A DNA stretch of 64,000 nucleotides from Candidatus Krumholzibacteriia bacterium (GTDB lineage: Bacteria > Krumholzibacteriota > Krumholzibacteriia > JAJRXK01). Shown here piece by piece: positions 26,001 through 38,000 of the stretch. Every line of letters starts with the position of its first letter. The first letter of the stretch is position 1. The position numbers are program-made. The DNA lies in assembly GCA_041484665.1 (NCBI GenBank), contig JBGPIA010000003.1, forward strand, positions 96,001 to 160,000, read 5' to 3'.

Positions 26001-29000
26001 GCACATCCGCCGAGAGCCCGACCTTCTTCTTGGCGGCGGATTGCAGTCCGATCTGGAGGCTCTCGATGAGGATCTCCCGATCGACGTTTTTCTCGCGGGT
26101 GACCGCGGCCAGCGCATCGAGGATCTTGTAGTCCATCCCAGTGTCCTTTCCAGCACACCTCGCGGCGAATCTAGTCGCCAGCGGGCTCTTCCGTCGGCCC
26201 GGATCCGGACCCGCGTCCCGGCCGCTCGCGCCTGCGTCTGGCGATCCGGCCGATCTTCAGATCGGGATCCAGCTGCGCCCGCGCGATCGAGGCGAGCGCG
26301 ACCCGCACCGTCCCAAAGCCGTCTACGACGACCACGATGGCCTCCGCGTCGGCGGCGACCAGCGGCCCACGCAGCTGATCGATGCCACCCTCCGGCCGGC
26401 GCGTCACCACCTTCACGATCTGACCCAAGTAGCGCTGGAAGTGCGCCGGCGAGGACAGCCGCCGGAAAATGCCCGGCGACGAGACCTCGACCACGTAGCG
26501 CCCCGTCAGCACGTCGGCCGCCCGGACCTCCAGCAACTGCGTGACCGCGCGGTCCATGGCCGTACAGTCCGCGATCGTGACGCCCCCCGGCTTGTCGATG
26601 GAGAAGCGCAGCGTGAGGCGGCCACCTCCGCGCATCACCTCCACGTCGACCAGCTCGTAGCCGTGCAGGGCCACCTCCGGGGCGACCCAGACAGCCAACG
26701 TCTCCGCCGACAGGTCCGCGGCCGGCCCGTGGGGCCCGTGATGCTCGTGCAACGGCTCCGCAGCCAAGGGCTTCCACCCTTTGCAGGCGCGCCGATGGCG
26801 TCCCGCCCGTGGGCGGGCTCCCCATCGAACACGAAAAAAGTGGACGCCCCCGTCCACTTCCCCGCTCGTTGAATACCACAGGTCGCCTGGACCGGCAAGG
26901 AGCAAAAGAAGTTAGCAGATCGGCGCCACGTCCGCCACCCCGGTGATGCGCCGTCTCGCTTCAGCGCTGCGCAGCGAAGTCGACGAAGACCAGCGCGACC
27001 AGGAGTCGCCCCACCTGCTCGAGGCTCTCCGGCGAGCACGCGCTGGGCGTGTCGCCCAAGGTGTGCCATTCGGGGTAGTCCAGATCGATCAGATCGATGC
27101 TGGGAATCCCGACCTGAAGGAACGGCAGGTGGTCGTCGATGACGGCTGGGCCGGGGATCGGCTCGAACGCCGGGAGCCCCAGCGCCTGCGCGCGGTCGAA
27201 CACCGTGCGGGTGAGGTCGGAGGCACGCTGCAGCCCGGTGGCCTCCATGGGGATGTGCAGGTCGGCGTCACCCACCATGTCCAGCAGGATCAGCGCGCGC
27301 GGGCGGTAGCCCGGGTAGTCCGCGGCGAAGCGCCGCGAGCCGATGAGATAGTGCTGGACGTCGCTCTCCCGGCCGTAGTCCTCCCCGTCGAACAGCAGGA
27401 GGTCGACGCCCAGAGGCGGCGGCGCCGCGTGGAGCAGCTCCGCCAGAGCCAGCAGCACGGCCACACCGCTCGCACCATCGTTGGCGCCTGGGATGGGCTG
27501 GTCGACCGGACCCCCCGGCTCGCGGTCGGCGCGCGGGCGGCAGTCCCAGTGCGCGGCGAACGTCACGCGGTCCGGCGCCTGGGGCCGCAGCGACGCCTTG
27601 ATGTTGGTGAGCGACAGCTTCCCGCTGCCGTAGGGGTCGTCGATCGTGAACGTGTGCGGGGTCACCTTCTCGCAACTTGCCGCAAGCTGCGCCTTCAGCC
27701 ACGCGGCCGCAGCCTCGTGCGCGGCGCTGCCAGGCACGCGGGGACCGAACTCCACCTGCTTCTTCAGCAGCGCGAACGCGCGGCGCCCGTCGAAGCGCGG
27801 CAGCTCCCGGGCAGGGGCTGGCGAGGCGGGTGCGGGCGCCACCGTTGGGGCGCGCGCGGCCGGGCGCGCCGCGCCAGCTTCCTTCGCCCAAGCCGCGCAG
27901 GAGATCCCAGCCGCGACGGCGCATGCGCAGGCCAGCGTCGCTGCCAATGGCGTATCAGAACGTGAGCGTGGCATTGAGCCCCAGGCCGAACGTGTTGGTT
28001 GTGATGCTCTGGCGCAGATCCTTGCTGAAGCCGTAGTTGAGCCGGAAGCCTGCACGCAGATTGCGGCTGAACTGGTAGCTGAAGTTCGGCACGACCGTGA
28101 GGTGCGATTGCCCGGCGTTCTGGTCCTGTCCGATCTCCGATTCGCGGAAGTTCTCGTTGCGATCGTAGGTGATGTCCAGAGTGGAGTCGATCTTCGTGCC
28201 GATCCCCTTCTTGCCGAAGCGCAGGAAGCCCAGCGTCCCCTCCGCATCGAAGCTCTTCTGCAGCTTCAGGTTGGCGGACGTGCGGCGCGACACAGCATCC
28301 TTGGCATTGGTGCGGGTGCGGTCGGTGCTCAAGGTCAACCTGAGGTTGCCGCTCAGCTCGTTCTTGAACCGGAAGTTCCAACCGGGCGAGATGCTCATGC
28401 TGACGCGCGGCTCGTAGCGCTGGGCGGTGACGTTGGGGACCGACTTGTTGCGGCGCACACTGAGGTCGAAGCTGCTAGAGGAGAACATGTCACCGAAGAT
28501 GCCCCACTTCTCCACGCCGGAGAGCTTGAGGCTCGCCACGGGCCAGTCGACGGACAGGTCCCGCGAGTCGCGCCCGCCGCCCGAACGCGATGTATTGCGC
28601 TCCTGATAGGAGAGGTCCGCGCTGAGCGAATTGGAGAACTTGCTCTGCGAGCTTAGGCTCAGCTGCTCGGTCTGCGAGAAGAGCTCGCCGTGGTCCACGA
28701 TCAGCGGGTTGGCGCCCTGCACGGTATCCGGCGCGCTCGACAGGGTCGGACCGAAGTCGGGGTGGTCGACGAATCCCAGCTGATAGGCGAACTGGGGCCG
28801 GTGCTTCATGTATTGGAAGCCGCTGCTGTTGTGCAGCGAGTAGTTCGCGCTCAGTGGCTGCATCTCCTTGGCGAAGGTGACGAACGGTCGCACCAACCCC
28901 TTGAGCACCCCTGCCGCGTCGACCTTCGGCCGGGCTGCCCCCGCAGTCGCGGCACCCGCTTGCGGCGCGCCCGGCGGGGACTGGCCGGCGGGCTGCCCCG

Positions 29001-35000: not shown

Positions 35001-38000
35001 CAACCGGCGCGGGCGCAAGGGCGGGGCTTTGCCCCAGCGCGGACACGGGAGCGCCGGCTCCGCCGATCAGGCAGGCCAGAAGGAGGGCGCTGCGGGCCAG
35101 CTGCCCGAAACCTCGTCGTCCCCGGTTGGGCACCGCACCCCCCGCGCGCGGCCTGGGCCGGAGCGGGCCGGCCTGGCGCAAAGCGTCCCCTCCGGGAGAC
35201 ACCCCCTGCCCTCGTAAGGGGTCAGTGAAGCTACCGCAGGCGCCTGCGGCGATCCAGCGAATCGGCGGGCTACGTCCTGGCTCGACCGCGCGACGCGCGG
35301 AACCTATGCTGTACCGGTGTTCCGCAACGAGCCTGCCCGGTCCCGCTGCTGGTGGCCGGCGGGGAGTCTCCGTCGGAGAGCCTTGGCCGCCGCGACCGTC
35401 CAATCCGCCGCATGATCCTGATTTACAGGCATCTCCTCGGGACCTTCGTGCCGCCATTCTTCTTCGGCCTGTCGGTCACCACGTTCGTGCTGATGATCGA
35501 CGTGCTGTCGAAGTACATCGACCTGTTCCTCGAGAAGGGGATCCACGTGGGGCTGGCGACGGAGGTGCTCTTCCTGAGCCTTGGGCACACGTTTGCATTA
35601 TCCATTCCAATGGCCGTGCTGGTTGGCACGCTCATGTCCATCGGCTCGCTGGCCGCCGATCACGAGATCACCGCGCTGCGCGCCAACGGCGTGAGCCTCT
35701 ACCAGACGACGATGCCGCTCTTGGGCATGGGCACGCTGTTGTGCGCGCTGATGATCTTCTACAACCACTACGTGCTGCCCGAGAGCAACCACCGCCTCAC
35801 CAATCTGCTGATCGAGATCCACCAGCTACGCCCCACGCTGCGCGTGGAGCCCAACATGTTCGTCCGCATCGACGACCGCTACACCATCTTCGTGCGCGAG
35901 AAGAACGACCGGACGGGCGAGCTGCGCGGCGTGAAGCTCTACCAGGCGCGCGGCCGCGGCGACCGCTTCCCCGACGTGATCGTGGCACGCACTGGTGTGC
36001 TGCGCACGGTGGCGCCTGGCCGCATCGAGCTCGAGCTGCGCTCGGGTGAGATGCACAGCATGCCCGACACGCGCAACACTGCCACCTACCAGCGCACGGC
36101 ATTCTCGCGGCAGACCTTCAACATCGACCTGGGCCCCGAGGGGAGCGCCCGCTCGCGCGAGCAGCGCGGCCAGCGCGAGATGAACCTCTCGCATCTGGCG
36201 CACGGGCGCCGTGAGGAGCTGGGGCAGATGGAGGACGCGCAGCGCGAAGCGCGGACCGTGCTGCAGCGCGCTCTGCTGGCGCTGGGCTCCCTGCGCTCGC
36301 CGGCGCCGGTCGATCCTGCTGCTGGCGCTGGCCCCGGCGCCAGCGCTCCATTCGCAGCCTACCGCGATCTGGTGGCGGCGACCACCCGCGACGCGTCGGC
36401 CCTGGCGCTCAAGGCCCAGCTGGTTGATGCCCACCGCCTCAAGGCGAGCCAGTACGCCGTGGAGTACCACAAGAAGTTCGCCATACCGGTCGCGTGCATC
36501 GTGTTCGTTCTGCTGGGGGTGCCTTTGGGGGTGTCGACCGGGCGGGGCGGCCGGGGCGTCTCCACCGGGATCTCGCTCGCGGCGTTCCTCGTGTACTACC
36601 TCTTCCTGACCGGCGGAGAGAAACTCGCCGACCGCGGCCGCCTGTCGCCGTGGCTTTCCATGTGGATGGCCAACTTCGTGCTGGGGGGGCTGGGGGTCGC
36701 GCTGCTCATCCGCTCGGTGCGGGAGGTGCACGTGCTCCGCCTTTCGCGTCCCGCCTGGGTGCGCAGGATGTGGACGCACTGGCTGCGGCAGGGCGCATGA
36801 CGCTGCTCGACCGCTACGTGCTGCGGCTGTTCCTGCGCGTGCTGGGTTGGTCCCTGCTCGCCTTCACCTCCCTATTCGTGCTGGTCGACCTCTTCGACCA
36901 CCTCGACGACTTCCTCGACGACCACGCCACCACGCTCTCCATCGCCAAGTACTACGCGTTCCAGCTGCCGTGGGTCGTGGACCTCTGCCTGCCGGTCGGA
37001 ATGCTGTTGGCCAGCCTTTTCACCACCGGCTTGCTCTCGAAAAACCGCGAGTACATGGCGTCCTTGGCGGCGGGCGTGAGCCTGGCGCGACTGTCGCGCT
37101 GGGTGATCGTGCTGGGCGTGGCCATGACCGCGGGCACGTTCGTGTTCCGCGAGGAAATCGTCCCCGAGGCGAACCGCCTGCGCACCGAGGTCAAGCAATA
37201 CGAGATCGAGCACAAGCCGCGCGGCGACCTCAAGAGCAAGAGCGACTTCGCTCTGGTGGGCGAGAAGGGGCGCGTCTACGTCGTCTCGCGGTTCCGCCCC
37301 GCGCCGCCGACCCTCGACGGCCTGTCGATCCAGACCTTCGGCGACACGACCATGGTCGAGCGCATCGACGCCGCGCGAGCGACCTGGACCGGCGCCCACT
37401 GGACGCTCCACACCGGGACCATCCGGCGCTTCGGCCAGGCCGGCGAGACCGTGGAGCGGTTCGACAGCTACGATCTGAACGACGCGGCGGAGACCCCCGC
37501 GGATTTCTCGCGCCGGGAGGTCGAGCCCGAGGACATGGACTATCGGGAGCTGGCGTCCTTCGCCGGGTGGGTCGAGCACACCGGCGGCGACGCCACGCCG
37601 TACCGGGCGGCGCTGGCGAACAAGCTGAGCTTCCCCTGGGTGAACGTCATTCTGGTCGTGCTCGGCCTTTCGTTGGGGGCCGAGCGCCGCAAGACCACAG
37701 TCTGGGCGGGCTTCGGTCTGACCGTCGGCCTGGCGTTCGCCTATTACCTGTTGATGGACTTCGGGCTGGCACTGGGCAAGGGGGGGGCCCTTCCCGCTTG
37801 GCTCTCCGCCTGGGGGGGCAATCTGGTCTACGGCGCAGGCGCCTTGCTGCTCTTCCACCGGGCGAACCGCTGACGCTCTCCGCGTCGCCCGCCCGGGCTG
37901 GCCACGCGCGGTCGACCGTGACGGGTCGATTGCCCCTTGCCCGTCGATGGCGTGTGTTGATACTTTGATCCGCTGGCTGCCGCCGGTCGCTGCGAACTCC

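Follow-up and report, generated by a model that had tools for sequence, protein, structure and literature searches.

In F. johnsoniae, the energy-requiring step of type IX secretion (T9SS) has been described as the removal of the carrier-substrate complex: loading of the substrate is energy-free and, without the motor, complexes stall on the translocon (available part of PMC10994853). The TXSScan model finds T9SS in Bacteroidetes only, according to the accessible portion of PMC4793230, and because models and tools take the motor genes GldK, GldL, GldM and GldN (GldKLMN) as core, motor-less systems go uncounted, despite large secretomes such as the 208 cargo domains of the genome described here. 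A motor-less state has been noted for two genera, Melioribacter and Ignavibacterium, the part of PMC11705866 at hand offering no mechanism. Full-text literature searches, with subscription papers and supplements outside their scope, returned no paper devoted to a motor-less T9SS, and PMC8542988 names the T9SS in a reference only. PMC7323717 contains none of six taxon names looked for in it.

The window analysed here is a stretch of 64,000 nucleotides (positions 96,001 to 160,000 of contig C3) from a Candidatus Krumholzibacteriia genome of 93.65% completeness in 54 contigs, and it carries the sprA gene (Table 1). An earlier note had placed the SprA/Sov translocon at 27955..35181; the translocon stands and is intact (498.7 bits with TIGR04189, cut-off 200), and its start moves seven codons up, to 35202, as taken from the protein on record. 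F. johnsoniae SprA (6h3i) is its only PDB sequence match (E 6e-34). The downstream M28 peptidase gene is found in 12 of 14 phylum sprA loci, a GWxTD-like gene adjoins sprA-lptFG in 7 of the 14, and none of them has an ExbB-like gene near sprA. The long TPR protein of the window was considered as PorW/SprE and left unassigned, other TPR proteins giving comparable scores: the best SprE/PorW match in the genome search was 53.6 bits and long TPR proteins reached up to 98.9, sub-cut-off scores that represent TPR noise.

Table 1. Features of the sprA region and the Ton motor locus. Positions count along the window, except where a contig is named.
Feature	Position	Strand	Remarks
TPR protein, 1223 aa	2040..5711	-	scores weakly on the PorW/SprE model, 83.5 (cut-off 250)
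M28 peptidase, next gene downstream of sprA	26961..27842	-	followed by rimP-nusA-infB
SprA/Sov T9SS outer-membrane translocon, 2415 aa	27955..35202	-	TIGR04189, PF14349, PDB 6h3i; one uninterrupted frame, stop side at 27955
lptF and lptG, arranged head to head with sprA	35412..37873	+	PF03739 twice
Ton motor ExbB and two ExbD-like genes	C3:74377-76135		PF01618 over cut-off

Other outer-membrane parts of the system are also encoded in this genome. The PorU sortase, reported before, was recovered with 494.7 bits (cut-off 420) and a catalytic pair, His894/Cys928, located by motif; with a relaxed motif pattern the pair is kept in 21 of 22 PorU sequences. porV adjoins porU in 20 of 20 loci, and the protein claimed as PorV passes the family model (185.5, cut-off 90) and stays below the strict one (127.1, cut-off 250). 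Eight genes exceed the family cut-off, in agreement with the seven further PorV-family barrels described previously, and five of those seven are directly preceded by a cargo gene. The cargo set, earlier put at about 150 proteins, is larger than claimed, since an iterated profile detected the C-terminal domain in 208 of 3522 C-terminal windows and in 0 of 1903 mid-protein windows. The proteins bearing these domains account for 11% of the called residues; 13 cargo proteins exceed 1500 aa and the longest has 2944 aa. A signal-peptide proxy did not discriminate between cargo proteins (78 of 208) and others (1069 of 3314). Plug (PF17116) gave no match at E<=1 in a genome search run without a positive control, and a profile built on the upstream neighbour of gldK, presumably PorP/SprF, also gave none. 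Across Krumholzibacteriota, SprA was found in 206 of 208 genomes and PorU in 71 of 71.

The failure to find GldK, GldL, GldM and GldN, already part of the earlier note, is now borne out by curated models and Bacteroidia profiles and, for the GldL-GldM pair, by a topology scan, with positive controls. In this genome the GldM model had no match at E<=10, and profiles from 19-21 Bacteroidia sequences gave none for GldN or GldM and a best E of 0.93 for GldL. The GldK profile retrieved two ordinary FGE proteins only, both discarded as GldK: a 262-aa plain FGE lipoprotein with TvpA as best PDB match (100 bits; PorK, 36 bits) and a kinase-FGE-hydrolase fusion. The same GldM search was positive in all 5 Bacteroidales tested and gave a weak signal for Ca. 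Cyclonatronum (genome G234, locus L149), which has a diverged gldL-gldM-(gldN position)-gldK operon (GldM 37.9 bits, GldK 164.5 bits) and, whose motor proteins, used as queries, matched nothing in our genome. The topology scan recovered 19 of 20 known gldL-gldM pairs, Cyclonatronum among them; here, with gene calls covering 83% of the genome, 7 of 4053 gene pairs were flagged and none looked gldL-gldM-like by eye. Diverged motors do exist, and both GldL and the gldN-position gene of Cyclonatronum escape the curated models. The control panel had been said to hold no Bacteroidota; it does hold one (B. thetaiotaomicron), and it is indeed not a positive control, as no panel genome matches SprA. 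A plasmid record (W01) was set aside as a positive control, gldM being absent from it.

The phylum-wide absence of GldM was also borne out: no credible GldM was found in 128 Krumholzibacteriota genomes, single-contig genomes included, the weak profile matches in 5 of the 128 being pieces of 50-63 residues (E 0.002-0.046), three of them in frames above 1200 aa. No GldK exceeded the cut-off in 71 phylum genomes (the top score, 100.5 bits, fell on the FGE half), and three genomes of 95-98% completeness had no GldK candidate of any kind. GldN was found neither in this genome nor in three relatives, with a model that also misses Cyclonatronum. It is very likely that the system has SprA, a PorU with its catalytic pair, carriers of the PorV family and some 200 cargo domains, and that GldK, L, M and N are undetectable throughout the phylum.

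The motor-less T9SS is peculiar neither to this genome nor to this phylum. Of the 96 SprA genomes in an evenly drawn Bacteroidota sample, 66 had no GldM over cut-off and 30 had one, profile counts that represent a handful of clades and not independent genomes. A Rhodothermus marinus genome (G214) is among the 66, and a CTD-bearing xylanase of this species was reported to be cell-attached (PMC6539836, available part). In the SprA tree (33 sequences, FastTree only, midpoint root), the phylum sequences form one clade with support 1.0, following family labels, and the motor-bearing Bacteroidales are nested among motor-less Bacteroidota. Tree and profile make it rather likely that GldKLMN was an addition in the Bacteroidia line, and the system of this genome is probably a working, motor-less and ancestral T9SS form. 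This pattern suggests an order of T9SS assembly with pore, carrier and sortase first and the rotary motor later. The earlier picture of an outer-membrane T9SS without GldKLMN across the phylum is retained, with the corrections that it is not phylum-specific and that ExbBD stays a proposed energiser.

By analogy with F. johnsoniae, the system very probably secretes. Cargo would cross the inner membrane by Sec, enter SprA, bind a PorV-type carrier with no energy spent, and then be cleaved and anchored by PorU. The statement that secretion must be energised differently presumes an energy need shown for F. johnsoniae only. On gene order and profile, we tentatively favour as energiser the single universal ExbB-ExbD-ExbD-TonB motor of the phylum, which would be shared with TonB-dependent uptake and pull the carrier-cargo complex out of SprA, with periplasmic GWxTD proteins as a candidate TonB-carrier link. 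Seven ExbBD sets against six TonB-dependent receptors had been counted previously; PF00593 gives seven receptor matches, the seven MotA/ExbB matches include flagellar MotAB and Tol-Pal, and the proposal narrows to one universal set with a receptor in the same operon. Among the rejected sets, MotA/MotB on C11 is a flagellar stator (TIGR03818, 332.9 over 303.8; a flagellar operon was read by eye at C2:70-110 kb), gene order and sequence features mark the C2:309-314 kb set as Tol-Pal, and those on C17 and at C1:250 kb are not universal, the latter because genomes with just two MotA/ExbB matches lack it.

The retained gene, ExbB1, has a single-copy orthologue in 123 of 128 phylum genomes; the sole further MotA/ExbB match is flagellar MotA in both G014 and G016, and TolQ in G077. 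In 13 of 14 candidate loci the ExbB1 operon has the gene order receptor, cargo, PorV-like, GWxTD, ExbB, ExbD, ExbD, TonB, L247 having proved a different ExbB. Both ExbD-like genes of our genome have an Asp where the membrane segment begins; TonB, present at the operon in 13 of 13 relatives, is absent from it here, and four TonB-like genes (E<1e-11) lie elsewhere. Counting against the Ton-motor proposal, the receptor is the ordinary client of such a motor, and SprE/PorW, essential in F. johnsoniae, reaches just 53.6 bits here (cut-off 250). G016 has five TonB-receptor matches and no second Ton motor, so uptake alone would account for the motor's retention. Furthermore, ExbB1-like genes at E<=1e-45 occur in 9 of 30 GldM-positive genomes, while 20 of 66 motor-less ones have none at that threshold (again a handful of clades), and all 3 motor-bearing genomes inspected show the ExbB-ExbD-ExbD order. 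Also against it, 20 Bacteroidota ExbB loci contained no best match to PorU, PorV, SprA or GWxTD. In favour of the proposal, the SprA paralogue is directly followed by the ExbB gene in 16 or more of the 41 Bacteroidota genomes with the highest scores.

GWxTD proteins follow the motor-less state in the Bacteroidota sample (65 of 66 SprA-positive/GldM-negative genomes, 8 of 30 GldM-positive, 0 of 25 SprA-negative, in a handful of clades). Their fold search gave generic Ig-like matches only (best Z 10.5), the C-terminal domain being barely covered, and GldM, PorM, PorK and PorN were not among the matches listed; a full-text literature search found no papers on them. Together with the half-size SprA paralogue and the conserved porU operon, they are fresh leads. 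As a whole, a motor-less T9SS with a Ton-type energiser is the best explanation, and a tentative one. A wider version is doubtful: the ancestral FCB T9SS might have used a Ton-type ExbB-ExbD-TonB motor coupled by GWxTD proteins to PorV-type carriers, with the half-size SprA barrel and an Omp85 partner as unrecognised core parts, until GldKLMN replaced this in Bacteroidia. If true, protein export would be powered by a Ton motor, and this form would be that of most T9SS-bearing lineages.

Alternatively, there may be no dedicated energiser: carrier and cargo would diffuse from SprA, PorU cleavage and anchoring or dedicated cargo-carrier pairs would keep the movement in one direction, and the Bacteroidia motor would have come later, for speed and gliding. 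The energy-free loading described in PMC10994853, the absence of a motor gene from the conserved porU operon (20 loci, none with an ExbB-like gene) and from the sprA surroundings (14 loci), the likewise weak or missing SprE and Plug, and the five PorV-family genes directly behind a cargo gene agree with this; complexes stalled by motor loss in F. johnsoniae (same source) and cargo of up to 2944 aa speak against it, and it is unlikely overall. Similarly unlikely is an unrecognised machine, unrelated to GldKLMN or extremely diverged; Cyclonatronum illustrates the extent to which a motor can diverge. Its candidates would be the conserved genes behind porU-porV, namely two DUF5683-like membrane proteins (20 of 20 loci), an NHL lipoprotein (17), the half-size SprA paralogue (20) and an Omp85-POTRA protein (19). 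However, no proton channel was identified among them, the topology scan and three genomes of 95-98% completeness provided no motor-like pair and no GldK candidate, respectively, and the SprA paralogue, confined to SprA genomes, was rejected as a motor substitute because it occurs in 22 of 30 motor-bearing genomes.

An ATP-driven inner-membrane complex as the energy source, formed either by LptF/LptG or by TolC and the ABC ATPase encoded after the ExbB1 operon, is quite improbable. In each of 13 operons the motor genes are followed by TolC and the ATPase, and by neighbourhood clustering all 14 phylum sprA loci have lptFG head to head with the translocon gene, but just 1 of 6 motor-less Bacteroidota loci does. 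LptFG has a known function in LPS export and the remaining lpt/kdo genes lie in the same window; its position beside sprA is probably envelope-gene synteny. Lastly, motor genes in unassembled DNA or a loss of secretion, in line with genome incompleteness and the strict PorV score, is a most improbable reading, largely refuted by the equal absence in 128 genomes, single-contig ones among them, and countered by intact frames, the catalytic pair and 208 cargo domains making up 11% of called residues.

Specific candidates come out of this analysis (one ExbB-ExbD-ExbD set, GWxTD proteins and the SprA paralogue), and Rhodothermus marinus, a motor-less species in culture, makes the role of energy at the translocon testable. 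Compared to the F. johnsoniae and P. gingivalis T9SS, the genome shares SprA and PorU over curated cut-offs, PorV-family carriers, porU beside porV and type A-like C-terminal domains; it differs in having no GldK, L, M or N, no match to Plug or the presumed PorP/SprF, SprE/PorW far under cut-off, and additional conserved porU-operon genes. Ignavibacterium and Melioribacter, with SprA, PorV and Plug only in the part of PMC11705866 available, also have a translocon without motor-ring genes, whereas our system, from a separate phylum, includes PorU and some 200 cargoes and gave no match for Plug. Cyclonatronum, too, is an SprA genome from outside Bacteroidia in which every Gld gene stays below cut-off, but it has a four-gene motor operon whose proteins find no match here. 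The C1:250-262 kb set resembles the Myxococcus Agl-Glt clusters in its ExbB-ExbD-ExbD genes, its TPR proteins and a protein with an AgmX/PglI domain (86.1 bits, cut-off 40), and differs in that the GltG and GltJ models score far under cut-off and the set is not universal. Finally, motor genes and a receptor share one operon as in the Ton system (ExbB-ExbD-TonB with a receptor; SusC/SusD-like pairs), but the operon described here additionally encodes a GWxTD protein, a cargo of the T9SS and a PorV-like barrel of its own.

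The motor-less T9SS is real and extends throughout the phylum Krumholzibacteriota. In the genome studied (5.45 Mb, 69.5% G+C, 54 contigs, completeness 93.65%; own gene calls for 83% of it), SprA reached 498.7 bits against the SprA/Sov model (cut-off 200), and its PDB matches were confined to SprA of F. johnsoniae. The earlier note placed sprA at 27955..35181, where a single minus-strand frame was indeed found, but the protein on record begins further upstream (see table). The gene is flanked by housekeeping genes, lptF-lptG head to head and an M28 peptidase and rimP-nusA-infB downstream, and SprA was present in 206 of 208 phylum genomes and in all 125 of high quality. 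An Ala/Pro-rich repeat stands behind its signal peptide, and a long Pro/Gln/Gly-rich low-complexity insert lies toward its C-terminal part (residues ~1990-2150, window region 29000-29900). PorU, encoded on contig C2 and present in 71/71 phylum genomes, scored above its model cut-off, adjoins a gene for a PorV-family barrel and keeps its His-Cys pair with a spacing of 34 residues, a pair kept in 21 of the 22 sequences compared; eight PorV-family genes exceeded the family cut-off in the genome. C-terminal cargo domains were matched by an iterated profile at 208 of 3522 C-termini versus 0 of 1903 mid-protein windows; the earlier count of 157 therefore errs on the low side. An operon-borne 883-aa cargo has two more close paralogues.

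The claimed absence of GldKLMN was borne out by genome, phylum and topology searches, now with positive controls, the GldM model being above cut-off in 5/5 Bacteroidales genomes. With profiles built from 19 gldKLMN loci, a six-frame search of the genome gave no GldM or GldN match, a best GldL match of E 0.93 and, for GldK, only two ordinary FGE proteins. Motor divergence is a real risk to this claim, because one control genome, Candidatus Cyclonatronum (G234), has consecutive gldL-gldM-unknown-gldK genes all below cut-off; its operon was missed by the curated GldL and GldN models and detected by the GldM model and our own GldL profile. Its GldM has 380 aa, ~130 residues short, and its GldK has an additional N-terminal part; 21 homologues of GldM were found. 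The four Cyclonatronum motor proteins matched nothing in our genome but the FGE proteins, and a GldM profile widened with the Cyclonatronum family returned only short pieces (E 0.002-0.046) in 5/128 phylum genomes. In addition, GldK exceeded its cut-off in 0/71 phylum genomes (three without any candidate), GldN was found in 0/3 searched and GldL in 0/5 single-contig ones, in a search that held no positive genome. A topology scan that recovers 19/20 known gldL-gldM pairs returned 7 of 4053 gene pairs in the genome, none plausible by eye.

In an evenly drawn sample of 121 Bacteroidota genomes, SprA occurred in 96 and GldM over cut-off in 30, all SprA-positive, leaving 66 with SprA and no GldM over cut-off (here called motor-less), among them Rhodothermus marinus (G214), Ignavibacteriales (G308), Balneola (G239), Rhodothermia (G229) and Cyclonatronum itself. 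More diverged motors of the Cyclonatronum kind may be hidden among the 66, since GldM was the sole motor gene searched there.

In F. johnsoniae, according to PMC10994853, loading of PorV with substrate inside SprA is energy-free, whereas removal of the loaded carrier from the translocon requires energy. The best candidate for supplying it here, unproven and in our judgement a little short of an even chance, is a Ton motor whose ExbB (ExbB1) is single-copy in 123/128 phylum genomes. In 13 of the 14 loci extracted the operon reads receptor, cargo, PorV-like, GWxTD, ExbB, ExbD, ExbD, TonB, TolC and ABC ATPase (one locus lacks the cargo, another exception is a missing GWxTD in one, and a single locus has an ExbD unlisted). 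The TonB gene, between exbD and tolC in 13/13 relatives, is absent from the operon of this genome. The operon's receptor is the sole PF00593 match of G055. Furthermore, the best 41 ExbB1 matches in the Bacteroidota sample were all SprA-positive and GldM-negative, none of the 25 SprA-less genomes matched at E<=1e-45, and an ExbB1-like gene lies directly behind the half-size SprA paralogue in at least 16 of the 41 (19 checked, mostly picked by eye). Against a role in secretion, a TonB-dependent receptor is the textbook client of such a motor, and in G016 five receptor matches share this single Ton motor. Likewise, ExbB1-like genes occur in 9/30 motor-bearing genomes (3/3 examined with the same gene order) and 20/66 motor-less ones miss the E<=1e-45 threshold; the tiers of scores may therefore be a matter of distance. 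Neither 20 porU loci nor ~40 kb around sprA in 14 genomes showed an ExbB-like gene, and no gene in 20 Bacteroidota ExbB loci had PorU, PorV, SprA or GWxTD as best match. P. gingivalis PG0534 is presented in PMC5445135 as a TonB-receptor-like T9SS component.

The seven ExbB-ExbD sets proposed earlier as energisers correspond to seven MotA/ExbB matches, but one is a flagellar stator (the genome holds a flagellar operon) and one Tol-Pal. The others include one Agl/Glt-like, which coexists with that flagellar operon, one beside a BamG-like gene, in an order repeated in G196 (L247), and one plain ExbB-ExbD-ExbD-TonB set. The C17 operon looks like an adhesin-on-carrier unit equipped with a separate motor, and G070 (L251) contains a similar operon. 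All 71 phylum genomes have at least two matches and five exactly two (E<=1e-8), the second being flagellar MotA in G014 and G016 and TolQ in G077. Three family f3 genomes, G014, G016 and G013 (L249, L250, L253; completeness 96-99%), have no TolQ-type match; each has ExbB1 together with flagellar MotA, to which G013 adds a weak fragment.

Behind porU-porV, a pair of DUF5683-like genes and the gene of an 1100-aa protein follow in 20/20 phylum loci, with an Omp85-POTRA gene in 19, an NHL lipoprotein in 17 and an M6-like cargo in 15. The ~1100-aa protein, predicted as an all-beta barrel (pLDDT 79), has SprA structures as its top four fold matches, at low TM-scores (0.24-0.26), and has a single short stretch in common with SprA. 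It occurs in 81/96 SprA genomes of the Bacteroidota sample versus 0/25 SprA-less ones, with or without a motor, and is therefore a T9SS-linked SprA paralogue, apparently uncharacterised, and no motor substitute.

Coordinates of the features discussed (C, contig of the genome; L, extracted locus)
Feature	Location	Strand	Remarks
SprA/Sov	window 27955..35202	minus	2415 aa on record, single frame
ExbB1	C3:75263-76135		~20 kb before the window; MotA/ExbB match common to two-match genomes
TonB position in the ExbB1 operon, gene absent	C3:74063-74377 (L158)		
Two paralogous DUF5683-like membrane proteins	C2:441457-443006 (L002:10458-12007)	minus	aromatic last residue; behind porV
Half-size SprA paralogue	C2:436860-440177 (L002:5861-9178)	minus	no Pfam match
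Omp85-POTRA gene	C2:434866-436515		after SprA paralogue
Paralogues of 883-aa cargo	C1:643523-646039; C8:170620-173268		
Agl/Glt-like cluster	C1:250229-261890 (L160)		OMP, 1680-aa TPR, ExbB-ExbD-ExbD, AgmX/PglI protein
BamG-like set	C2:683794-689582 (L162)		ExbB-ExbD, BamG-like barrel (92.7 bits, cut-off 250), lipoprotein
C17 operon	C17:12910-28131 (L159)		2248-aa cargo, PorV-like, 1019-aa TPR, ExbB, ExbD, ExbD, TonB
Cyclonatronum diverged motor operon (G234)	L149:2830-7542		shortened; below all curated cut-offs

GWxTD proteins were found in 65/66 motor-less, 8/30 motor-bearing and 0/25 SprA-less Bacteroidota genomes, and a GWxTD-like gene, so called by its best match in our genome (the GWxTD protein, 46-50 bits) and not by family scan, adjoins sprA-lptFG in 7/14 loci. 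The predicted model comprises a pair of Ig-like domains plus an alpha/beta domain at the C-terminus, and its fold matches are generic only. GWxTD proteins are abundant in Acidobacteria too, in which no T9SS is known. In a SprA tree (33 sequences, FastTree, midpoint root), the 15 phylum sequences formed a single clade (support 1.0) ordered by family labels, and 7 Bacteroidales sequences were nested within 6 motor-less Bacteroidota ones; by parsimony, the motor-less state would be the older. McBride and Zhu reportedly noted in 2013 that gld genes are missing in Rhodothermus and Salinibacter. For Melioribacter and Ignavibacterium, PMC11705866 lists PorV, SprA and Plug and no further T9SS protein. 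The literature searched held no study on how a motor-less T9SS is powered and mentions such systems only in passing. They are common to much of the non-Bacteroidia Bacteroidota. Judged by its genes, the system would resemble a T9SS in working but fall outside the Bacteroidia type on motor and ring.
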